This document shows, in pieces, positions 1,916 through 46,817 of a stretch of DNA of 64,000 bases (the first letter of the stretch is position 1; each line of letters begins with the position of its first letter). Made by a program: the position numbers and the translations under genes. The DNA is from Candidatus Micrarchaeota archaeon (GTDB lineage Archaea; Micrarchaeota; Micrarchaeia; Norongarragalinales; Norongarragalinaceae). The notes below the pieces were generated by a model that saw only the letters and a list, made by a program, of their open reading frames with translations, did no database searches and was not told the DNA's origin. The stretch covers positions 1,224-65,223 of the forward strand of contig CAZOKY010000001.1 in the NCBI GenBank assembly GCA_964580705.1. The letters run 5' to 3'.

Positions 1916-2245
1916 GTGGCTGAAGCAACCGAATTCACGCGAAAAGTGTGGAAAGCGTGCCGTCGAATCCCCCGCGGACGCGTTTCGACTTACGCGGAAA
2001 TCGCGCGCGCAATCGGAAAACCGCGAGCAAGCCGCGCCGTAGGCAACGCGTTGAACGCGAGCCCGGGAATGCGCCCGCCACGCGGCGTTCCGAGCGTTCC
2101 TTGTCACCGAGTGGTCAAAGCCGACGGCGAAATGGGCGGTTTCGCGAAAGGAACGAAAACCAAAACCAAACTGCTAGGGAAAGAAGGTCTGACCGTAAAG
2201 AAAGGAAAAATCTTGGGTTTCGAGAAAAAACTTTTTTCTCTTTGA
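1916..2245 (+). CDS. ogt: methylated-DNA-protein-cysteine methyltransferase (MGMT/Ogt C-terminal domain only)
   Basis: PCHRVV active-site motif and an HTH region (YAEIARAIG); 109 aa. Confidence 0.8.
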   Translation: MAEATEFTRKVWKACRRIPRGRVSTYAEIARAIGKPRASRAVGNALNASPGMRPPRGVPSVPCHRVVKADGEMGGFAKGTKTKTKLLGKEGLTVKKGKILGFEKKLFSL

Positions 2246-2337
2246 TTCGCCAATCCGCGAGTTGAAGTAAAAACACGTTTTTTAAACGAGCGCGCGGAAA
2301 CACGTTAAGGGAAACTCGTTAAGGAGGGAGATGCGCT

Positions 2338-3414
2338 TTGAACGGAAACGAAAAAAAACGGGAAACGTTTTTCGCAATCGCTTTGCTGCTGCCTTTGCTG
2401 CTGGTAATGCCCGGTTTCGTCCTCGCTGACGGCGGACACGTCCCGCCCAGGCCTTCGCCCGGCGTGCAGCCTTACCGCGTTTTCGAGCCGAACCAGCAAG
2501 CCGTAGTAGCGTGGAACAACGACCGCGAAATACTCATTCTCGCGACGACGATTTACGCCAACGCGCCGACCCGCGTGCTCCGCTTGATTCCGTTTCCAAG
2601 CGAGCCTCAAGTCGAGCAAGGAGACTGGACTACCTTCGACTTCCTCAAACAATACCAAACGCGTTACCAAGAAGACTACGGCATAATGCCCGGAGCAATG
2701 GGAGCCGCCGCTGAAAGCAAAGCTCAAGTCGTCTTCCACAAGCGCGTCGGAACGCACACGCTCACCGCGGTGCGCGTTGAAGACGCCGGCGAACTCGAAG
2801 GATTCACGCAAGGCTACGAAGCCGCCTCCGGATTAAAGTTCGACTTCACGGAAATCAGGCCGATAGTCGCGAATTACGTTGCGCGAGGAGTCAAGTACTT
2901 CGTGTTCGACTTGATTGAAGTCGACGTGGAGCCGCGCGACACGAACCCCGTAATCTACTCTTTCGACTCGAAGTACGCGTTTTACCCGCTCGAAATTTCT
3001 TCGACGACTCAAGGCCGAGCCGACGTGGCGCTTTACTTGATTACTCCCGCAGGCGCCCAAGAAATTCACGACGCGAAAGACCCGATGACTCCGTCGCGGC
3101 TGCCTTTGTCGTTCGCGGGAAGCCACTCGCTCGCCGCGTACGAGTTGTTGAAAGTAGGCCGCAACGTAAGCGAACTGATGCGCGGCGGGACGGGAAGCGA
3201 AACCGTAGGCGAAGCCGACTTGCGAGTGTACACTTACTCGGGGCAGTTAAGGGATCTAACGCAAGACTTCGTAATCAAAATGAGTGGGAACGGCGAAAGC
3301 CGCGCCTTGCCCGGTTCGGAAGAAGATTACTCTTCGCTATTGTGGCTGACTGCGGGAGTGCTGCTCGTGTGCGCGGCGCTGGCGTTTTACGCGTTCAAAC
3401 GCTGGTACTTGTAA
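2338..3414 (+). CDS. secreted / C-terminally membrane-anchored hypothetical protein
   Basis: N-terminal signal peptide (KKRETFFAIALLLPLLLVMPGFVLA) and a C-terminal TM helix. AAGGAGG lies 10 nt upstream of the TTG start at 2338. Confidence 0.55.
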   Translation: MNGNEKKRETFFAIALLLPLLLVMPGFVLADGGHVPPRPSPGVQPYRVFEPNQQAVVAWNNDREILILATTIYANAPTRVLRLIPFPSEPQVEQGDWTTFDFLKQYQTRYQEDYGIMPGAMGAAAESKAQVVFHKRVGTHTLTAVRVEDAGELEGFTQGYEAASGLKFDFTEIRPIVANYVARGVKYFVFDLIEVDVEPRDTNPVIYSFDSKYAFYPLEISSTTQGRADVALYLITPAGAQEIHDAKDPMTPSRLPLSFAGSHSLAAYELLKVGRNVSELMRGGTGSETVGEADLRVYTYSGQLRDLTQDFVIKMSGNGESRALPGSEEDYSSLLWLTAGVLLVCAALAFYAFKRWYL

Positions 3415-3474
3415 AAAAGTTTTTTGCGGTGCGCGCGTCGCGGAATAGCAACGAAATTCAAGGAAAAACTGTTT

Positions 3475-4185
3475 TCAAGCGCGGCGTGAAAAACGAGGTT
3501 CTAGTTTCTTGTGAATTCCAGCCGTGATAGCGTCCGAAATTTCTTCAGACATGAAACCGTGCTTTTCAGACGCCGCCGCGTCAGCCACGTGCAAGTAGCT
3601 ATTCAAAAGGTAACGCGTTTCCTCGCGTTCGCGGCGGTTTGCACCGCGCGCTTCATCGATAGCGCGTTCAATCGATAGCCGGTGCCGTTCGAATTCAGTC
3701 ACTTTTTTAAAAATCGCTGGAACTTCGACGTCAAACTGCTTTTCGTCCTCGCTCGGTTTTACTAAAACCGGTTGCCGGAGATAAAAATTAAGCAGCGTCG
3801 GCAACGCCGTGCTGCGCAACTTGGTTGCGCGTCCAGTTAAAGAATGCAGAAAACCAAAAGCGCGAACTAGAAAACCCGGTTTCAACAGCGTGTTGTGATA
3901 GGAAATTATTAGAGCATCAGGATTTTTAGCGCGCAAACCGTCGAAAAACGCTTGGTTTTCAGGGAAAAACCGAGCGTTTAGTCGAAACGGAAACTGCACA
4001 AACGGTTTTTTAGTAGTCAAGCCAAGCAGCCTGTGGTGAACGCTTAACTCTCTTGGAAAAGTTACGAAAGATACTTTGTGCCCCAGCGCTTCAAGCTTCT
4101 CGCTAACGCGTTTAGCAATCGGCGCCGCAGTCAGTTCGTTCGGGTCTTCGTCAACAACAAAGATGGCTTCATCCAAGCTATTCAC
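3475..4185 (-). CDS. hypothetical protein, translationally coupled to argS
   Basis: Track ORF 3475..4308 overlaps argS by 127 nt. An in-frame GTG at 4185 overlaps the argS TGA (GTGA), giving VNSLDEAIFVVDED... No family recognised. Confidence 0.45.
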   Translation of the reverse strand: MNSLDEAIFVVDEDPNELTAAPIAKRVSEKLEALGHKVSFVTFPRELSVHHRLLGLTTKKPFVQFPFRLNARFFPENQAFFDGLRAKNPDALIISYHNTLLKPGFLVRAFGFLHSLTGRATKLRSTALPTLLNFYLRQPVLVKPSEDEKQFDVEVPAIFKKVTEFERHRLSIERAIDEARGANRREREETRYLLNSYLHVADAAASEKHGFMSEEISDAITAGIHKKLEPRFSRRA

Positions 4186-5954
4186 ATTTTCTCGGGCGCG
4201 CTGATTCCGAGCAACGCAAGCCCGTTCTCGATGACGCGAAGCGACGCGCCCACGATTTGCAAGCGACGCGCCTTGTCCTTTTCGTCGTCCGCCGCGAGAA
4301 CGGGACACGCAGCGTAAAAAGAATTGAACGCCGCACAGTAACGCAACAGGAAATCGCAGACTTGGTGAGGCTGCATCGCTCGCGCAGCGCTTTCGACGAC
4401 GAGCGGGAATTCCGCTGCGAGCGCGAGAAGCTGCTTCTCTTCCCTTCCAAAAACAGCGTTCTTGCCTGACTTGGCGGTTACGCCCGCATCCTCCGCTTTC
4501 GCGAGAATCCCCCTGCAGCGCACCAACGCGTACTGAACGTAAGCGCCAGTATCGCCTTCGAACGTCACCGCCGCAGCCGGATCGAAAACAATGTTTTTCT
4601 CAGGCGACACCCGCAGGAAAGCGAAACGCGCGCTTCCCACGCCGATTTGCTTCGCTATCGCATCGATTTCTTTCGCGTCGTAGTCGGAGCCGCGGCGCGC
4701 AAGCACTTGCTTCCTCGCCTCCGCAATTACTTCATTCAGAATGTCTTCGAGGAGAACGACGTTTCCTTGACGAGTCGACATTTTCCCGCTCGGCAACGAA
4801 ATCAACCCGAAAGCCACGTGCTTCAAGTGAGGCGCGTACTGCCTGCCCAAAAGGTCAAGGATTTTGAATACTTGCTGGAAATGGTTTTTTTGCTCGCTCC
4901 CGGTAACGTAAACGCATTCCGTGAAGCGATGCTTTTCGAAGCGGGTTTCCGCAAGCGCGAGATCGCGCGTCGAGTAAAGCGTCGTGCCGTTGCTGCGCAG
5001 CACTATGAGGTTCGGCAAAGCGAATTTCTCTAAATCGCCGACTATTTCCCCGCCCTTGTCGCGGAACGCCACTCTTTTTTCGAGGAGTTCAACGGCGATT
5101 TTCTTGGCAAGCGGAACCATATCGCTGTCGAAAATGGTTTCCTCGAAAGAAACGCCTAGAAGCGCGTAATTTCGCTGGAAGGCGTCAACGCTGATGCGCC
5201 GCACTTCCGCAAGCTCCTTCTTGAGTTTTATTTCCCCGCTCTCCATACCCTCGACGATTACCCGCGCCTTCTCGAGCAACTCAGGATTCTCCTCAATGCG
5301 CTTGTGAATCTTCACGTAATAATCCAGCAAATCCTTCTCGTCGTTCAGCTTCCGCTTTTCCAGCTCGTGCAACGCGAGCATGAGCTTCGCCGTCTGCGTT
5401 CCAGCCTCGCAGAGATAGTTCGAACCGACGACGCTCGCGCCAGAAGCGCGCAGCAAACGCATAATGCTGTCGCCGAGAATCGTGGAACGAATGTGCCCCA
5501 CGTGCATGGGCTTCCCGACGTTCGGAGAAGAGTAATCGATTACGACGCGCCGTTTTTTTCCTTCCGAGTTCGAACCGTAACCCGCACCGGCAGCGCCTAC
5601 TTCCTCGTTCAGCGCAGCGTAAAAAGCGTCGGAGTAAACGAAGTTAACGTAAGGCCCGAGCGCGCTCACCGACGAAAACGACGGCGGAAGATTCTTCTCC
5701 AACTCCGCAGCGAGCTTCTTCGCGATTTCAACCGGATTCTTTTTGGCTTGCTTCGCGATTTCGAACGACGCCGCACTGCTTAAATCCCCGAACTCGAACT
5801 TCGCCGGCCGCGCCACTGCAGGCGCGACTTTAACGGAAAAAAGTTTTTCCGCAGATGAAGCGATTGCCGCGGCTGCTTCGCCTTCGGCGCGCTTTTGAAG
5901 GCAAACCGCATTCTTCACGCCCGCAACGTTCTTCGCTTTCATCGGTTTAGCCAT
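4182..5954 (-). CDS. argS: arginyl-tRNA synthetase
   Basis: HVGH class I motif (PMHVGHIRSTILGD) and a DALR-type C-terminal region. The start was chosen at ATG 5954 (MAKPMK); the track start at 5972 is TTG. Confidence 0.85.
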   Translation of the reverse strand: MAKPMKAKNVAGVKNAVCLQKRAEGEAAAAIASSAEKLFSVKVAPAVARPAKFEFGDLSSAASFEIAKQAKKNPVEIAKKLAAELEKNLPPSFSSVSALGPYVNFVYSDAFYAALNEEVGAAGAGYGSNSEGKKRRVVIDYSSPNVGKPMHVGHIRSTILGDSIMRLLRASGASVVGSNYLCEAGTQTAKLMLALHELEKRKLNDEKDLLDYYVKIHKRIEENPELLEKARVIVEGMESGEIKLKKELAEVRRISVDAFQRNYALLGVSFEETIFDSDMVPLAKKIAVELLEKRVAFRDKGGEIVGDLEKFALPNLIVLRSNGTTLYSTRDLALAETRFEKHRFTECVYVTGSEQKNHFQQVFKILDLLGRQYAPHLKHVAFGLISLPSGKMSTRQGNVVLLEDILNEVIAEARKQVLARRGSDYDAKEIDAIAKQIGVGSARFAFLRVSPEKNIVFDPAAAVTFEGDTGAYVQYALVRCRGILAKAEDAGVTAKSGKNAVFGREEKQLLALAAEFPLVVESAARAMQPHQVCDFLLRYCAAFNSFYAACPVLAADDEKDKARRLQIVGASLRVIENGLALLGISAPEKM

Positions 5955-34945: not shown

Positions 34946-35983
34946 CTATTGAAAGCGAGTCAACGTATCCTGTTTTCCAAGCAATATGTTAAAAGCATTT
35001 TCGGCTTCTCGCGCAGTATTTCGCTCAATATTTTCTTTGATGTGATGAATAACCCCGGAAAATTTAGCATCCGGTTTGGTAACTATAATCAGATCGTAGT
35101 GAAAAGGAATTCCCGTTCTAACTGCAATTGTTTCAACAGTTTTTCCAGTTTCTCGTATTTTTTCGACATAATAATCGAGAGGCGTTTTCGTTCCAAAATC
35201 GGAAGAACCCAAAAATCGTTTGAGGGCGCCTAGGTTATGTGGATTTCGGGTAACGTTGGAGGTTGGAAAGTTTATTATCAAATCACAGTATCGGTGTTCT
35301 AAAAGTTTGTTTATTGTCGCCCAATCGGCGTCTAACCCCTGGTTATCAATAAAGACAAGAGCGTGATGTTTTCCTGATTGAGTAAGTTCGGCAAGTATGC
35401 CGTCAACGGCTAAATTACAATCGCCATGAATTAGCTTAAATTGACTTTTACTGAGACCGGCGTTAGTCAGTATGTCTAAACGGCCGCGCAAAGCATCTAA
35501 GTTAGTTTTGTTTTCGTCTACAAAAAACATTTTCTTAAAAGGCGGGATAGCGGTGGCAGCTATGAGCGGAGAGCCGACAATATAATGTTTTTTAGAACAT
35601 TTCGAGCATTTTTCAGGTTGTGGCTCGCAATCTCGATATTTACACACAAGATCAATGCCTGAATTCGAAAGTAAGTCAATGAAATAAAAATTATCACCTA
35701 TGTTTCGACTTATTATTGGAACATAGCAGCTATGGGCGTATGCGGCGAGGCAATAAAGTTTGAGCGGCGCCCAAAAGTTCGCTAGAAAAAAACTACTGGG
35801 GTCAACTTCGACTAAGGCAGGCATGACCGACGAGTATTTTTTAAGTATTGGATCAAGACGGTCGGTAAAAGATTTTTTTGGTTTATCTCGCATACATCGG
35901 CGCCAGTAATTTTTTATCAGATTTCGTGTTCTGCGTCCTAAACATTTTCTCGGTTCGAGGGTTATATTCTTTTCTCGTACCAA
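34946..35983 (-). CDS. hypothetical protein with a C-x6-C-x2-C cysteine cluster, in an AT-rich island (candidate partner of the adjacent radical-SAM-like enzyme)
   Basis: 345-aa ORF with markedly lower GC than its flanks. Cys cluster CEPQPEKCSKC. The true start is probably internal (M at 35893 or 35824), because the track start overlaps the upstream gene by 100 nt. Confidence 0.5.
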   Translation of the reverse strand: MVREKNITLEPRKCLGRRTRNLIKNYWRRCMRDKPKKSFTDRLDPILKKYSSVMPALVEVDPSSFFLANFWAPLKLYCLAAYAHSCYVPIISRNIGDNFYFIDLLSNSGIDLVCKYRDCEPQPEKCSKCSKKHYIVGSPLIAATAIPPFKKMFFVDENKTNLDALRGRLDILTNAGLSKSQFKLIHGDCNLAVDGILAELTQSGKHHALVFIDNQGLDADWATINKLLEHRYCDLIINFPTSNVTRNPHNLGALKRFLGSSDFGTKTPLDYYVEKIRETGKTVETIAVRTGIPFHYDLIIVTKPDAKFSGVIHHIKENIERNTAREAENAFNILLGKQDTLTRFQ

Positions 35984-36749
35984 ATTTTATGTGACATGAT
36001 ATTCCGTTTTCCTTACAAAAGTCAAGCACTTCGTTAGCATGAGACTCGTAAAAGAATTCATTGTCCTTGAAGGAACTGCTTTTCGTGTTGTAATTCAGCT
36101 TGCCGAAAATAATTTTGTCGACGAAAGAAACGCTTTCCAAAATATCGTTCAAATCCTGTTCTACGAGGTTCGGCGTCGGGTAAGGCTCCATGCTAACCCA
36201 AGTCCGCAAACCCTCGTCATGCAAACGCTTCAAGGCTTTTACTCGCTGGTTGTAAGGCGCGCTGAACGGCTCAAACTCCTTCTTGAAACTAGCATCGTTC
36301 GAAACCAGCGTGATTCCGTACTCGTTGTCGAAACCGTATTTCTCCGCGTCAGCCAGCATTGCCGGGTATAGCCCTTTCGTTAAGACAGTGCTTCTGATTC
36401 CGTACGAATTCAGTTTTTCGATGATTTTAGACGACATTTTCGCTACTTCAGGGTAGCCGTACATGAACGGGTCGGTCGTAAAACACAAGTGAACGAAATT
36501 GATTTTATCGGCGTGCTTGGGAATCTCTTCATCCAATAATTCGAGCGCGTTTTCAACTAGTTTCGGCTTGCACCAGTCAGAGTAAGACTTTACTTTGCCG
36601 AAGCGAATCGCCATCATCATGGCGTAGCAAGGAAAACGGCAGCCGTGAGCGCAGCCTTCAACGTGGTTAATGCAGTAGTCCGCGTATTCTACCTTGCTTC
36701 GGTACAATAGCGACTTTTTTCTGATAGTCTGCATTAACCAACCACCCAA
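35883..36749 (-). CDS. radical-SAM superfamily protein of the SplB / DNA-repair-photolyase-like type (COG1533-like) with a variant Cx3Cx3C cluster motif
   Basis: INHVEGCAHGCRFPCYAMM resembles the SplB-family N..GC.HGC.YCYA motif but carries one extra residue between the second and third Cys. AT-rich coding sequence. Confidence 0.55.
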   Translation of the reverse strand: MGGWLMQTIRKKSLLYRSKVEYADYCINHVEGCAHGCRFPCYAMMMAIRFGKVKSYSDWCKPKLVENALELLDEEIPKHADKINFVHLCFTTDPFMYGYPEVAKMSSKIIEKLNSYGIRSTVLTKGLYPAMLADAEKYGFDNEYGITLVSNDASFKKEFEPFSAPYNQRVKALKRLHDEGLRTWVSMEPYPTPNLVEQDLNDILESVSFVDKIIFGKLNYNTKSSSFKDNEFFYESHANEVLDFCKENGISCHIKFGTRKEYNPRTEKMFRTQNTKSDKKLLAPMYAR

Positions 36750-37421: not shown

Positions 37422-37451
37422 TACTTCCCACCTCGAAAAAATCGTTTTATT

Positions 37452-37568
37452 TCACTTCTGCAGAACCATGTCTTGCCCGCAGCAAACGAGCGTTCCCCCG
37501 CCCGCTTCCACCACGCTCACGACGTTCCCGCAAACCTCGCAACGATAAACTTCATTAACCGCCGTCAT
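37452..37568 (-). CDS. dsr: desulforedoxin (Dx, 38 aa; rubredoxin-like Cys4 iron centre), not in ORF track
   Basis: My own translation: [38 protein letters not shown]. Near-identical in pattern to Desulfovibrio gigas desulforedoxin (C-x2-C ... CC). Confidence 0.75.
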
Positions 37569-37592
37569 TTCTCTCACCTTTTCTTTTCGCTT

Positions 37593-38183: not shown

Positions 38184-38247
38184 CGATGCCCACCTCTCAA
38201 CGCAAACTCTTCCTTAAAAGAAGAAAACCGAGTTACGCAGCCGAAGT

Positions 38248-39075
38248 TTAAAAAAACACGGTTACGAGCAACGCGAGCAGAAGCATGTTGCCGAAATCCG
38301 CGATGCTCGTCGTGATTGGAATGAGAAAATTGCTTGGATCCTCGCCTTTACCGAAAAAGTAGAATCCCGCCGCGATGGCGACGAAGAAAAGAACGGTGAC
38401 GAGCAGAACGGCGTCTATCAACGCTATCGCGAAAACCTTGAACGCGACGAGCGCGCTTACGGCAAAACTCGCGCTCGAAATCACGAGAGCCGCGGCTGCG
38501 CCCAGCGTTGCGGTGAATACCGCGAGAAACAAGACTTGCATGAAGAGCTTGTGCAACTCAGCGTTCTTCCACCAACCGCGTTCGCAGCCCCTTACTTTTC
38601 CTTCGTGAAGCATAGTCGAAAAACGAGAGGAAATAATGGAAGCGTAATCCCCGATCATGTCGTTCAACGCGGGCAGGAGGACGACGAGCGGCACTATGGC
38701 AACGAACGCCGCCTTTATGTTTTCGAGCGCGAATCCTCCGAGCGAACTAACTATGGAAGCCAGCAACAGAATCTTGATGCTTTCCTTGATTATGGTTCCA
38801 GCGACGTTCGAGTGGGCGCCGTACTCTTTCACGTAAAAAAGCGTTTTGCGCGACAACTTGTGCTTCGCATGCAAGTCGTGCTGCAGCGGGTGAAAGTGCT
38901 TGCGCGGCAACGCGCGCAGGCGCTCGAGCTTGCGAGGCAAACGCGGCGTAACGACGACGCGCTTGTGCGCGTGCGCTTCGTGAAACACGCGCGCCAACGG
39001 GTTCCCGATTTCCTTCAAACCGGTTTTCCCGTCGTTTTTGTTTTCGGCTTCTTTTTTCCCGTTTTTGTTTTTCAT
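38248..39075 (-). CDS. MgtE-domain divalent-cation transporter, C-terminal half (COG1824/SLC41-like), separate gene
   Basis: PITTSIADFGNMLL-type D..G motif typical of MgtE TM domains. ATGA overlap with the upstream half. Confidence 0.55.
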   Translation of the reverse strand: MKNKNGKKEAENKNDGKTGLKEIGNPLARVFHEAHAHKRVVVTPRLPRKLERLRALPRKHFHPLQHDLHAKHKLSRKTLFYVKEYGAHSNVAGTIIKESIKILLLASIVSSLGGFALENIKAAFVAIVPLVVLLPALNDMIGDYASIISSRFSTMLHEGKVRGCERGWWKNAELHKLFMQVLFLAVFTATLGAAAALVISSASFAVSALVAFKVFAIALIDAVLLVTVLFFVAIAAGFYFFGKGEDPSNFLIPITTSIADFGNMLLLALLVTVFF

Positions 39076-40512: not shown

Positions 40513-42693
40513 CTAATTCTTCCTGGAAGGCTTCCAGTTCTTCATCAAAGCGCTGTTGGCGGTTACCGCGACGCTCGAGAAAGCCATTGCCGCGCCCGCA
40601 ATCGCGGGGTTAAGCAGGGTTCCGGTGAACGGGTAGAGAACGCCGGCCGCAATCGGGATTCCGATCAAGTTGAACGCGAAAGCCCAAGCGAGGTTTTCCT
40701 TGATTTTCCTTAACACGAAGCTGCTCAACCTAATTGCAGTCACGGCGTCGCGCAAATCGCTTTTCACCAAGACGACGTCGCCCGCCTCGATTGCGACGTC
40801 GGTTCCCGAACCAATCGCTATTCCGACGTCCGCTTGAGCCAACGCGGGCGAATCGTTTATTCCGTCGCCGATCATCGCCACCCTAAAGCCTTTTTTCTTG
40901 AGTGCCTTCACGTGCTTTTCCTTGTCTTGAGGAAGCACGCGCGCGTAAACCAAGTCGATGCCCACTTTCTTCGCTATCGCTTTCGCGGTTTCCTCGTTAT
41001 CGCCCGTAATCATCGCGACCTTGAAACGCATTTTCTTGAATTCGCGAATGGCTTCAGCCGACGTTTCCTTGACCGCGTCCGCAATCGCTATCAAACCAAT
41101 CGCTTTCCCGTCGACTGCTACGAGCACGACCGTGTTCGCCTGCTTCTCCAACTCCAAAAGCGCGTGCGACAACGAAGCATGATTCACCTTGTTCGCTTTC
41201 AGCAACGCCGGGTTCCCCACTAAAACCGTCTTGCCTTTGACTTTCCCTGCAACGCCTTTGCCCGCGACCGATTTGAAGCCGATTGCCTTGCCGACGCCGA
41301 GCTTGCGGTTCCTGGACTCAAGGACCACCGCGTTGGCCAGCGGATGTTCCGAGTGTTTCTCCAACGCAGCGGCCCAAGCAAGCACTTCGTCTTCGCTGAA
41401 ACCGCTTGAAGGAACGATTTTGGTGACTACGGGCTTTCCGATTGTGATGGTGCCCGTCTTATCCAAAACGACGGCGTTCACCGACTCGATTTTCTGGAGC
41501 GCGGCCGAGTTCTTGAACAAAACGCCGTTTTCAGCGCCTAAACCCGAACCCACCATTATCGCGGTCGGCGTGGCGAGCCCAAGCGCGCACGGACAGGCGA
41601 TTATCAAAACCGAAACAAACGCGGTTAACGCGAAATCAAAGCCGCTTCCGGCAACCAGGAACCAGAAGGAAAACACGATTACGGCTATGACGAATACGGC
41701 AGGAACGAACACCGCCGAAACCTTGTCCGCCAACTCTTGAATCGGAGCCTTCGACGACTGCGCTTCCTCAACGAGCTTGATTATTTGCGATAGAAGCGTG
41801 TCTTTCCCGACTTTCGTCGCCTTGAATTTAAGCGAACCCGCTTGATTGATGGTGGCGCCGATTACTAGGTCGCCTTTCTTTTTCTTGACGGGAACGCTTT
41901 CGCCCGTGACCATGGACTCGTCGATGAAACTCTCTCCTTCCACGACTACGCCGTCAACCGGAACCTTGCCGCCGGGCTTCACCAACACGACGTCGCCGAC
42001 TACGACGTCGTCAACGGAAACCTCGATTTCCTTGTTTTTCCTGAACACTACCGCGGTCTTCGATTGCAAGCCCAGCAATTTCTTGATTGCCTGCGACGTC
42101 CTTCCTTTCGCGACCGACTCCAAGTACTTTCCAAGCGAAATGAAAGACAGGATTATCGCTCCCGCTTCGAAGTAAAGGTGCCCGTCGTAGCCGAGCACCA
42201 CCGCAACGGAGTAAAACATAGAGGAACCGACGCCGAGAGTCACGAGGGACTCCATCGTAGGCGAACCCGTTAAAACCGACTTGACTCCCTTGACGAAAAT
42301 CCGTTTGTTCACGAACAGAACGGGGATTACGAGCGCGAATTCAATCCACGCCGCGTTTTCCATGACAAACTCCGGCAACCGGAACAAGTTGAAATCCGCG
42401 AGCATGAACAAGAGCAGCGGAAAACTGAAGACCGCCGACAACAGGAAGCGCTTCCAGTACGCCGCCGACTCATCTTCCTCTTTTTTCGCGTTCGCTTCGC
42501 CCTCGAGCAGTTCCGCATCGAAACCCAAACTGATTATTTTGTCGCGCACCGAATCGAACGACGCATCGCCTTCGATTGAAAGCGTTTCCGAGTCTTCGAA
42601 GCTCGCGCTATGCACGCCTTTCGCTTTCTTCAAGGCGGCCTCGATTTTCCTGGAGTCGGCGCCTGGAGAAGCGCCGTATATCTTGAGCCTCAA
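40513..42693 (-). CDS. copA: copper-translocating P1B-type ATPase (CopA/CopB)
   Basis: CPC, DKTGTIT and GDGINDSPAL motifs. The start is inferred at TTG 42693, which overlaps the copZ TGA (TTGA); track ORF 40513..42861 overlaps copZ by 170 nt. The N-terminal HMA-like domain lacks CxxC (IYGASPGAD). Confidence 0.85.
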   Translation of the reverse strand: MRLKIYGASPGADSRKIEAALKKAKGVHSASFEDSETLSIEGDASFDSVRDKIISLGFDAELLEGEANAKKEEDESAAYWKRFLLSAVFSFPLLLFMLADFNLFRLPEFVMENAAWIEFALVIPVLFVNKRIFVKGVKSVLTGSPTMESLVTLGVGSSMFYSVAVVLGYDGHLYFEAGAIILSFISLGKYLESVAKGRTSQAIKKLLGLQSKTAVVFRKNKEIEVSVDDVVVGDVVLVKPGGKVPVDGVVVEGESFIDESMVTGESVPVKKKKGDLVIGATINQAGSLKFKATKVGKDTLLSQIIKLVEEAQSSKAPIQELADKVSAVFVPAVFVIAVIVFSFWFLVAGSGFDFALTAFVSVLIIACPCALGLATPTAIMVGSGLGAENGVLFKNSAALQKIESVNAVVLDKTGTITIGKPVVTKIVPSSGFSEDEVLAWAAALEKHSEHPLANAVVLESRNRKLGVGKAIGFKSVAGKGVAGKVKGKTVLVGNPALLKANKVNHASLSHALLELEKQANTVVLVAVDGKAIGLIAIADAVKETSAEAIREFKKMRFKVAMITGDNEETAKAIAKKVGIDLVYARVLPQDKEKHVKALKKKGFRVAMIGDGINDSPALAQADVGIAIGSGTDVAIEAGDVVLVKSDLRDAVTAIRLSSFVLRKIKENLAWAFAFNLIGIPIAAGVLYPFTGTLLNPAIAGAAMAFSSVAVTANSALMKNWKPSRKN

Positions 42694-42935
42694 AGTAACT
42701 CGTACCCCGCTTTGCCAACCGCTTGCTTGAGTTGCGGAACGCTCGCCTGCCTCGGGTCGTAATCCACGACGGCCGCGTTGTTCACGGCGTTGACTGAAGC
42801 CGAGGAAACCCCGTTCACTTTCTTCAACGCCTTCTCGACAGCCAAAGCGCACGAAGCGCAAGTCATTCCTTTAACCTTAAAAGACGCTTTCATTTCTTCA
42901 ACCACCTCTTTCTTCAACCGCCACTTTAAACCCAA
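42690..42935 (-). CDS. copZ: copper chaperone CopZ (HMA domain)
   Basis: GMTCASC metal-binding motif; 81 aa. Confidence 0.85.
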   Translation of the reverse strand: MGLKWRLKKEVVEEMKASFKVKGMTCASCALAVEKALKKVNGVSSASVNAVNNAAVVDYDPRQASVPQLKQAVGKAGYELL

Positions 42936-45728: not shown

Positions 45729-46817
45729 TCAAACGCTCGAGAAAGCATTATAGTAAGCTTCATTGTTTTTAACCCATTCGGGAACGCCGCAAGAACGCAA
45801 CGCGCGCTTTCCGAAAGGCAAACCCTGCGAAAGCAGCCAAGAAACAATCGCACGGCTGCAAACCAAGCAACGATAACTACGCGCGCCCGTCTTCGTCGCG
45901 TAAGGAACGCGCAAACCGAATTCTTCCTCAATCACGCCCGCAAAATCGCGCAGCAGTTTTTCCGAAGACGAAACCACGTAAAACTGTTTTCCGTTGCGGA
46001 TAACGTTTCCGTAACGCATGACGTAAGCCAGCAACTTCGCCAAATTCGCGTTCAGTTGAACGGGAATCTCAACGCGCCATTTTTCAGGTTGTTTTTCGGC
46101 GTCAAAACGAAAATCGTTAAACCACAAAGCGTTTTTGTAACCAAGAGGTGCTACAGAATGCGTTTCAGCGACCTTGCGCAACAAGCTGTTTTTCACTGCA
46201 TCACAACCGAAATCGACTTCTCGCTCGAAAGCAGGCAACGACTTGGTTCGAATAAGGAAACTCAACGCCGCCGTGGTTTTACCATCTTTCCTCAGGTTTC
46301 CAGGTTGAAGCCAAGTTCGAGAAGTCGCCACGCCGAATGTTCGTAGCATTTCCTTCAAGTCTTCAACGAAAGCGATTCCTCCGTCAAGCAATTCCTCGCT
46401 CTTGAAAACCTTGAAGCCGACGCTGAAAGAATAGGCATTGCTTTTCTTCGAAATCCAACCCTCGCATTGAAAAGCAGTCGCGAGGTAAGCACGGGAAAAC
46501 GCTCGATTTTCTTTGATCCAACGCGGGACTCGAAAAACGCAAAGCATTTTGTCTCCTTTCGGCGCCCCTGCTTCGAACAACAACCTGCTGACCCGCACGC
46601 TGTTAAAACGGCACTTGAAACTCGTTCCGAAACCAGTGCCTTTCGCGTAACTAGATTTCAAATCGAACTTATTTTTTACCAACGCCTCGAAGTCTTTCAA
46701 CGCTTGCCAGTCGGCAGAAGACAGGTAGAAGTGAGAAAGATTTTTACTTAAGTGGCCGTCGAACGTCACGTAACTAATTATTCGCGCCAAATCAGCGTCA
46801 AAAAAAGTAGAGTTCAC
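45729..46817 (-). CDS. LAGLIDADG-like (double-motif) homing-endonuclease-family protein, free-standing
   Basis: ARIISYVTFDGHLS and AYLATAFQCEGWIS resemble the two LAGLIDADG helices. A possible degenerate third repeat (LLAYVMRYGNVI). 362 aa; immediately 3' of two tRNA genes. Confidence 0.4.
   Translation of the reverse strand: MNSTFFDADLARIISYVTFDGHLSKNLSHFYLSSADWQALKDFEALVKNKFDLKSSYAKGTGFGTSFKCRFNSVRVSRLLFEAGAPKGDKMLCVFRVPRWIKENRAFSRAYLATAFQCEGWISKKSNAYSFSVGFKVFKSEELLDGGIAFVEDLKEMLRTFGVATSRTWLQPGNLRKDGKTTAALSFLIRTKSLPAFEREVDFGCDAVKNSLLRKVAETHSVAPLGYKNALWFNDFRFDAEKQPEKWRVEIPVQLNANLAKLLAYVMRYGNVIRNGKQFYVVSSSEKLLRDFAGVIEEEFGLRVPYATKTGARSYRCLVCSRAIVSWLLSQGLPFGKRALRSCGVPEWVKNNEAYYNAFSSV

Follow-up and report, generated by a model that had tools for sequence, protein, structure and literature searches.

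A 38-codon open reading frame (ORF) on the minus strand of a 64-kb stretch of DNA (64,000 nucleotides, all of which we call the window) from a DPANN archaeon is almost certainly a real gene, dx, encoding a free-standing desulforedoxin (Dx), and it is located between the genes for a rubrerythrin (Rbr) and an Fe/Mn superoxide dismutase (SOD). The kind of protein is already known, and the rbr-dx-sod context is uncommon yet recurs in other loci. We found no description of a Dx-SOD pair or of an rbr-dx-sod operon in the open-access papers searched. The recurrent linkage between Dx and Rbr suggests that Dx probably stands in for rubredoxin, supplying rubrerythrin with single electrons.

The minus-strand ORF encodes a desulforedoxin

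Translation of the ORF gave 38 amino acids followed by TGA, exactly the protein reported in an earlier note made from the DNA sequence, and the identification of that protein as a desulforedoxin was borne out by profile, PDB and fold searches. The Pfam profile PF06397 (Desulfoferrodoxin N-terminal domain) matched residues 3-36 with 69.4 bits (E=1.9e-19; cutoff 23), and the NCBIfam profile TIGR00319 (desulfoferrodoxin FeS4 iron-binding domain) matched with 67.9 bits (cutoff 36.05). The best match in a search of PDB sequences was desulforedoxin from D. gigas (1cfw/1dxg, E=5e-13), to which Dx is ~70% identical (23 of 33 aligned residues, counted from the PDB-search alignment), and desulfoferrodoxin N-terminal domains were the next matches. 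With 32 homologues as input, AlphaFold2 gave a model with a mean pLDDT of 92.5, and the top Foldseek match of this model in the PDB was 1dxg_A (TM 0.92/0.97, rmsd 0.5 Å); the predicted model therefore has, in silico, the 1DXG-type fold of three short strands plus metal knuckles. The C-x2-C-x15-C-C ligands (C10, C13, C29 and C30) do not vary across an alignment of 31 sequences, D. gigas Dx among them. The protein is a single domain that is not fused to superoxide reductase (SOR), and the next gene, 30 bp on, encodes SOD. In ligand spacing, profile matches, single-domain architecture and predicted fold, the deduced protein agrees with desulforedoxin on every family criterion that we checked. It would be expected to bind iron as a rubredoxin-type Fe(Cys)4 centre and, by homology to D. 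gigas Dx, to form a homodimer; members of the family are redox-active and bind one Fe per chain in distorted tetrahedral geometry.

The D. gigas protein is likewise free-standing, is 36-38 residues long with the same cysteine spacing, and ends at the same domain boundary, but its host is a sulfate-reducing bacterium, whereas the host of the window Dx is an archaeon in which the gene is positioned between rbr and sod. The alternative that the ORF arose by chance and is no gene could draw on its length of just 38 codons and on its not being called in the NCBI record. It is refuted by the profile matches (E-values about 1e-19), the extent of identity to a protein of solved structure, the high-confidence model and the conservation of the ORF in relatives (see below), and we give it practically no credence.

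Desulfoferrodoxin (2Fe-SOR, the Dx-SOR class of SORGOdb; TIGR00320; 1DFX, 1VZG and 2JI1) contains a centre I domain that is homologous to Dx (48-57% identity in structure alignments), and an upstream rubrerythrin is common to many Dx-SOR loci and to the window dx. Desulfoferrodoxin also has a centre II (neelaredoxin) domain, whereas the window Dx stops after residue 38 and has a SOD gene downstream. We rejected the assignment of Dx as a desulfoferrodoxin, as it has no Fe(His)4Cys centre II (EKHVP...H...H...C-x2-H), has no PF01880 match, and scores 49 bits with the full-length desulfoferrodoxin equivalog TIGR00320 (cutoff 146.9), the low score resulting from a match to only the first 36 positions.

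An alternative GTG start codon in the ORF list, at 37577 and three codons upstream of the ATG, would yield a 41-aa protein. We assigned the start to the ATG at 37568 because the GTG is inside the Shine-Dalgarno-like AGGTGA and because the closest homologues begin at the position of the ATG; the likely product is the 38-aa form rather than the GTG-extended one. The earlier note described dx as unannotated, which is true for the source record: the 38-aa protein is missing among the NCBI proteins of the contig, whereas the exact Rbr, SOD and EF-2 sequences of the contig are present. The exact Dx sequence occurs only in JGI, Logan and ENA data, where assemblies (L001 and L002) include dx as a predicted gene, with a PF06397 match and the same gene context. 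The gap in the source annotation results from the small size of the gene. Across rbr, dx and sod, the opposite-strand ORFs matched no Pfam family and were rejected as genes. In one short ENA assembly with an identical dx (L003, 1-647), the upstream rubrerythrin is split into ORFs of 114 and 50 aa, probably by a frameshift or an assembly error.

dx is part of an operon-like unit with rbr and sod

Pfam and equivalog matches confirmed that dx is flanked by genes for rubrerythrin and Fe/Mn SOD, as the first reading of the sequence had stated (Table 1). The rbr product is composed of a diiron four-helix bundle and a C-terminal CxxC-x12-CxxC rubredoxin-like domain; it matched the NF045767 equivalog with 237.7 bits (cutoff 200), and its best PDB match was D. 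vulgaris rubrerythrin (1ryt/1b71, E=4e-51). The best PDB matches of the SOD were 1ma1, 1p7g and 3ak1 (E=1e-73 to 3e-65), and the metal-ligand residues H78, D167 and H171 are conserved in the alignment. The three genes are all on the minus strand, separated by spacers of 24 bp (rbr-dx) and 30 bp (dx-sod), and each has a GGTG-type Shine-Dalgarno motif 5-7 nt before its start codon. A scan for promoters and terminators of the bacterial type, applied here to an archaeal host, returned nothing relevant near rbr. This layout suggests that rbr, dx and sod form an operon-like oxidative-stress unit that would be co-transcribed.

Table 1. Features of the rbr-dx-sod region and of nearby genes in the window, listed in the direction of transcription
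Feature	Position	Strand	Basis or remarks
ORF of 362 aa near ribosomal-protein cluster (S9, L13)	45729-46817	-	LAGLIDADG_3 match
Heavy-metal P-type ATPase (782 aa) and HMA-domain chaperone (81 aa)	40513-42935	-	~2.3 kb upstream of rbr
T7 run ending the preceding mgtE gene	38250-38256	-	Read from sequence; putative archaeal terminator
AT-rich TTTTAAGG upstream of rbr	38212-38219	-	Read from sequence; putative promoter element
Shine-Dalgarno-like GAGGTG, 7 nt upstream of rbr ATG	38191..38196	-	Read from sequence
rbr, canonical rubrerythrin, 196 aa	37593..38183	-	PF02915 (117 bits) + PF21349 (42 bits)
Shine-Dalgarno-like AGGTGA, 5 nt upstream of dx ATG, in the rbr-dx spacer	37574..37579	-	Read from sequence; putative function
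dx, free-standing desulforedoxin, 38 aa	37452..37568	-	ATG 37568, TGA 37452-37454; translation + PF06397/TIGR00319
dx codons for Fe(Cys)4 ligands	C10 37539-37541, C13 37530-37532, C29 37482-37484, C30 37479-37481	-	Translation
T6 run in dx-sod spacer	37436-37441	-	Read from sequence; possible partial archaeal termination signal
Shine-Dalgarno-like GAGGTG, 7 nt before sod ATG	37429-37434	-	Read from sequence
sod, archaeal-type Fe/Mn SOD, 205 aa	36804..37421	-	PF00081 + PF02777
Radical SAM gene	35883-36749	-	With TcmP, "radical SAM mobile pair" (34946-36749)
TcmP, three-Cys-motif partner	34946-35983	-	TIGR04474, 82.9 bits (cutoff 53)

The rest of the window encodes archaeal core machinery, including L7Ae, NusA, S12, S7, EF-2, class I LysRS, tRNA-intron endonuclease, Alba and MCM, together with L1/L10/L12, SecY, RpoD and many other ribosomal proteins. 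The radical SAM/TcmP pair is located between sod and rpl1 and looks like an insertion because it is missing from a relative (L005, described below), in which rpl1 directly follows sod. Upstream, an SdpI/DUF1648 gene and two MgtE-domain genes separate the heavy-metal ATPase and HMA-domain genes from rbr; in a Dehalococcoidia locus (L035), a Cu-type ATPase is likewise just upstream of an Rbr-like-dx-sod unit. All named top matches of the window EF-2 belong to Candidatus Micrarchaeota or Micrarchaeia, which makes the host a DPANN archaeon. The EF-2 of the window has no intein/LAGLIDADG insertions, whereas several related Micrarchaeota have EF-2 homologues of ~1250 aa that contain them.

The window contains no SOR or free rubredoxin

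A Pfam scan of about 68 ORFs detected no SOR (PF01880) and no free rubredoxin in the 64 kb. We also searched all six frames with phmmer; the queries were P. furiosus SOR (identical to PDB 1do6) and C. pasteurianum rubredoxin (identical to PDB 1bfy). The SOR query found nothing in the window (best E 0.86), and the rubredoxin query found no rubredoxin, its match to the dx ORF having E=1.9. With that value and no Pfam rubredoxin match (PF00301), the assignment of Dx as a rubredoxin, a family with two C-x2-C-G knuckles about 30 residues apart, was rejected. No flavodiiron protein (FDP) or FTR-like gene was found in the 64 kb, and no NAD(P)H:rubredoxin oxidoreductase (NROR) or other reductase to charge Dx is present in the window. 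The 30-bp dx-sod spacer contains no remnant of an SOR. A genome-wide check for superoxide reductase had been recommended in the earlier note, and within the 64 kb its outcome favors the interpretation given there.

dx is conserved in relatives and appears to be under purifying selection

In one relative (L005/L006, P0002), Dx is 82% identical to that of the window and the gene order SdpI-MgtE-MgtE-Rbr-Dx-SOD-L1 is kept. A 109-aa ORF on the opposite strand, with no Pfam match, is present between dx and sod (L005 3405-3806; L006 1148-1477). This ORF breaks the adjacency of dx and sod in L005, where it occupies a gap of ~400 bp that holds no SOR remnant, while rbr and dx stay adjacent. In a more distant relative (L118), Dx is about 66% and SOD 61% identical to those of the window, and the gene order (2143-4750) is Prx, a reverse rubrerythrin with an N-terminal rubredoxin-like domain, an FTR-B-like protein of 97 aa (PF02943), Dx and SOD. 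The dx-sod gap in L118 is 12 bp, and the reverse rubrerythrin gene is ~320 bp upstream of dx with the FTR-like gene between them.

The dN/dS of dx (Nei-Gojobori) was 0.26 in comparison with L005 and 0.25 in comparison with L118; for the neighboring genes, the values in comparison with L005 were 0.10 (rbr) and 0.07 (sod). These values indicate that dx is a genuine gene under purifying selection. That the small ORF is conserved in both relatives and that all four cysteines are invariant is the opposite of the two outcomes that the earlier note had listed as evidence against its proposal.

Rubrerythrin is the more widespread partner of the Dx module

To place the window locus among others, we drew on scans that returned more than 550 Dx-module loci in species-representative genomes and more than 550 in metagenomes. 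We classified the best 80 from each of these two scans together with loci fetched earlier, 162 modules altogether, and the set comprised 111 Dx-SOR fusions, 49 free-standing modules and 2 others. A protein search yielded 60 clusters of small Dx proteins (37-67 aa), and the hosts of free-standing Dx include DPANN archaea, methanogens, Dehalococcoidia and CPR bacteria, among others. The earlier note had called a free-standing Dx next to an SOD uncommon. Its statement holds for the adjacency: SOD is encoded 3' of Dx in 5 of the 49 free-standing loci (three lineages) but not in any of the 111 fusions of the classified set. It does not extend to free-standing Dx itself, which is common, given that it accounts for 49 of the 162 classified modules and for the 60 clusters of small proteins. 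The five Dx-then-SOD loci are the window (same sequence as L001), L005, L118 and the Dehalococcoidia loci L035 and L086; sod is 12-60 bp downstream of dx in all of them except L005, where the distance is ~400 bp.

A rubrerythrin gene on the same strand and within 200 bp accompanies 30 of the 111 Dx-SOR fusions (upstream, as in the window, in 21) and 7 of the 49 free-standing dx genes; the 24-bp gap in the window is within this limit. In a Pfam census of the 88 immediate neighbors of free-standing Dx, rubrerythrin was the commonest family (8/88), followed by pyridine-nucleotide disulphide oxidoreductases (Pyr_redox_2, 7/88), CMD (AhpD-like, 6/88), SOD (5/88) and SOR (3/88). FeThRed_B was found twice (2/88). 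The Dx module is thus more widely partnered by rubrerythrin than by SOD, and the linkage between Rbr and Dx is recurrent.

Other neighbors differ from locus to locus. An FDP gene is beside some of the closest free-standing homologues (L093, L130, L170 and L171; Dx 76-81% identical), an NADPH-FMN reductase gene (FMN_red) is 26 bp upstream of dx in L095, a Fur-Prx cluster is beside dx in L172, and DJ-1 is a neighbor in L017. Split pairs of Dx and 1Fe-SOR genes are present in L044, L064 and L121, and the genes around many free-standing dx genes are unrelated (e.g., L007). In L171 the gene order is Rbr-Dx-FDP, and in L110 (736-1063) two free-standing dx genes are in tandem, 41 bp apart. In three Dehalococcoidia loci (L035 4061-5723, L086 567-1959 and L017 1957-2940), a gene for an Rbr/ferritin-like protein is directly upstream of a free-standing dx, and none of these three upstream proteins has a rubredoxin-domain match.

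One further locus bears on the origin of dx. In L129 (995-1773), a desulfoferrodoxin (Dfx) stub of 62 aa begins immediately after rubrerythrin (0 bp). The stub has kept the Dx domain and, of the SOR domain, the initial EKHVP; the rest of that domain was not found in any frame. It looks like an intermediate stage in the decay from Dfx to Dx. Such a truncation in progress, and the fact that Rbr followed by Dx-SOR is a common arrangement, would be in keeping with the view that the window dx is a functionless, decaying relic of a Dx-SOR gene that has lost its catalytic domain. A relic would not be expected to show a dN/dS of ~0.25 in comparison with two relatives and four invariant cysteines, to have its own Shine-Dalgarno site, to stop precisely where the domain ends, like D. 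gigas Dx, or to be followed by a spacer that is free of SOR remnants. Moreover, free-standing modules are closer to the window Dx than fused ones (mean core identity 0.72 versus 0.67, in a biased sample and by identity ranks, the 36-residue module having too few columns for phylogeny). We consider decay to a relic very improbable for the window gene.

Dx as a candidate electron donor to rubrerythrin

Rubrerythrins, SORs and FDPs are normally fed by rubredoxin and NROR, and in the NROR-Rd-Rbr/SOR/FDP systems of D. vulgaris, C. acetobutylicum and P. furiosus the carrier is encoded beside the enzyme it serves, an arrangement that is mirrored in the window (PMC11980386; PMC3116461 and its references). 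These systems have rubredoxin as the carrier, a reductase for the superoxide step and an NROR, whereas the window has Dx as the carrier, a dismutase for the superoxide step, and no NROR. Free-standing Dx holds the genomic position of rubredoxin beside all three enzyme types (Rbr, SOR and FDP). Our proposal that Dx is the donor to rubrerythrin is based on this carrier position, on Rbr being the commonest partner of Dx, and on the existence of a natural fusion in C. jejuni. According to the proposal, SOD would convert superoxide to H2O2 and O2, rubrerythrin would reduce the H2O2 to water, and Dx would serve as the one-electron shuttle in place of the free rubredoxin that is absent from the window, with electrons passing from a reductase or ferredoxin encoded outside the window to Dx and then to both centres of rubrerythrin, Fe(Cys)4 and diiron. 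We infer both the direction of this transfer and the partner of Dx from the gene context.

The C. jejuni protein, desulforubrerythrin, is described in PMC7482061 (citing Pinto 2011) and PMC6006211 as a natural fusion of a Dx-like centre with rubrerythrin. Its single chain combines a Dx-like domain, a rubredoxin-like domain and a diiron four-helix bundle, and these three metal-centre modules are all encoded in the window, by dx (PF06397) and rbr (PF02915 and PF21349). By analogy, the fusion provides Rosetta-stone evidence for a partnership between Dx and Rbr. The systems differ in that desulforubrerythrin is one polypeptide with Dx at its N terminus, whereas the window encodes two polypeptides in the order rbr then dx. 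An identification of the window genes as desulforubrerythrin was rejected, because they are separate ORFs: dx has a Shine-Dalgarno site and is set apart from rbr by a stop codon and 24 bp.

The diversity of loci suggests further ways in which a free-standing Dx could operate. In L035, L086 and L017, Dx could supply the Fe(Cys)4 centre in trans to an Rbr that has no rubredoxin domain, and the NAD(P)H flavoproteins encoded beside some dx genes (Pyr_redox_2 in 7/88 neighbors; FMN_red in L095) could reduce Dx.

Several observations go against Dx as the donor to rubrerythrin. The window Rbr has its own rubredoxin-like domain, and Dx is therefore structurally dispensable for it; no reductase to charge Dx is encoded in the window; the tight pair in L118 is dx-sod and not rbr-dx; and many free-standing dx genes have unrelated neighbors. 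In stress islands, genes may be adjacent simply because they are co-regulated. To our knowledge, no physiological role has been settled for free-standing desulforedoxin in the decades since it was discovered, nor for D. gigas Dx itself. A broader reading of the same loci is that Dx is a general Fe(Cys)4 carrier with its main clients elsewhere (FDP, 1Fe-SOR and FTR-like proteins), its proximity to rbr and sod being a matter of stress co-regulation alone. The varied neighbors of the closest free-standing Dx (FDP, SOR, Prx with Fur in L172, FTR-B-like in L118 and DJ-1 in L017) speak for such a carrier, and we also count in its favor that other DPANN and Micrarchaeota metagenome-assembled genomes are reported to have SOR or rubrerythrin in differing combinations (PMC8561730). 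There is, however, no FDP, SOR or FTR-like gene in the 64 kb, and Rbr is the single most frequent neighbor of Dx; furthermore, this reading overlaps with the one in which Dx donates to Rbr, as a general carrier could serve Rbr too. We therefore regard a general carrier with other main clients as rather unlikely, though it is the strongest competitor of donation to rubrerythrin among those considered here.

The position of sod raises the question of whether Dx could work with SOD instead. In Dx-SOR fusions and in split Dx and SOR pairs, the SOR domain or gene stands where sod is found in the window, SOD never adjoins the 111 fusions, and the SODs of two lineages (the window SOD and those of L035/L086 in Dehalococcoidia) are only ~26% identical, indicating that the association arose at least twice; in their alignment the first ligand His is shifted by one position in the Dehalococcoidia SODs. 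Dx might then re-reduce Fe(III)-SOD, or help to metallate or repair the enzyme. SOD requires no external reductant, however, and dx is split from sod by the opposite-strand ORF in L005. Just three independent lineages are involved, and the downstream partner varies among close homologues (SOD, SOR, FDP or none), for which co-regulation is the better fit. We think it improbable that Dx works with SOD in this way. It is no less doubtful that an Rbr-type diiron protein, Dx and a superoxide scavenger form a conserved functional layout in which Dx directly contacts SOD, and we would likewise give little weight to the corollary that, within such a layout, SOD took the place of SOR on at least two occasions (in Micrarchaeota and in Dehalococcoidia) by way of unrelated SOD subfamilies. 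If true, re-reduction of Fe(III)-SOD by Dx would give a reductase-like cycle in which no O2 is released, which would be a previously undescribed use of a dismutase by oxygen-sensitive cells with tiny genomes.

Implications for oxidative-stress defence in DPANN archaea

Papers on the defence of Micrarchaeota against reactive oxygen species (ROS) list rubrerythrin, SOD or SOR (PMC8561730, PMC8773360), and term searches of these two papers did not find "desulfoferrodoxin". The missing mention fits with short genes being overlooked. As the window dx illustrates, gene-length cut-offs can cause small redox carriers to drop out of inventories of ROS defence in DPANN and CPR genomes. The recurrent adjacency of Dx and SOD, which is absent beside Dx-SOR fusions, is a small, testable hint that SOR may have been replaced non-orthologously by SOD. 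Finally, the window presents a streamlined three-gene unit from a DPANN archaeon, with no rubredoxin or SOR in 64 kb, in which the proposal that Dx donates electrons to rubrerythrin would be testable with three proteins.
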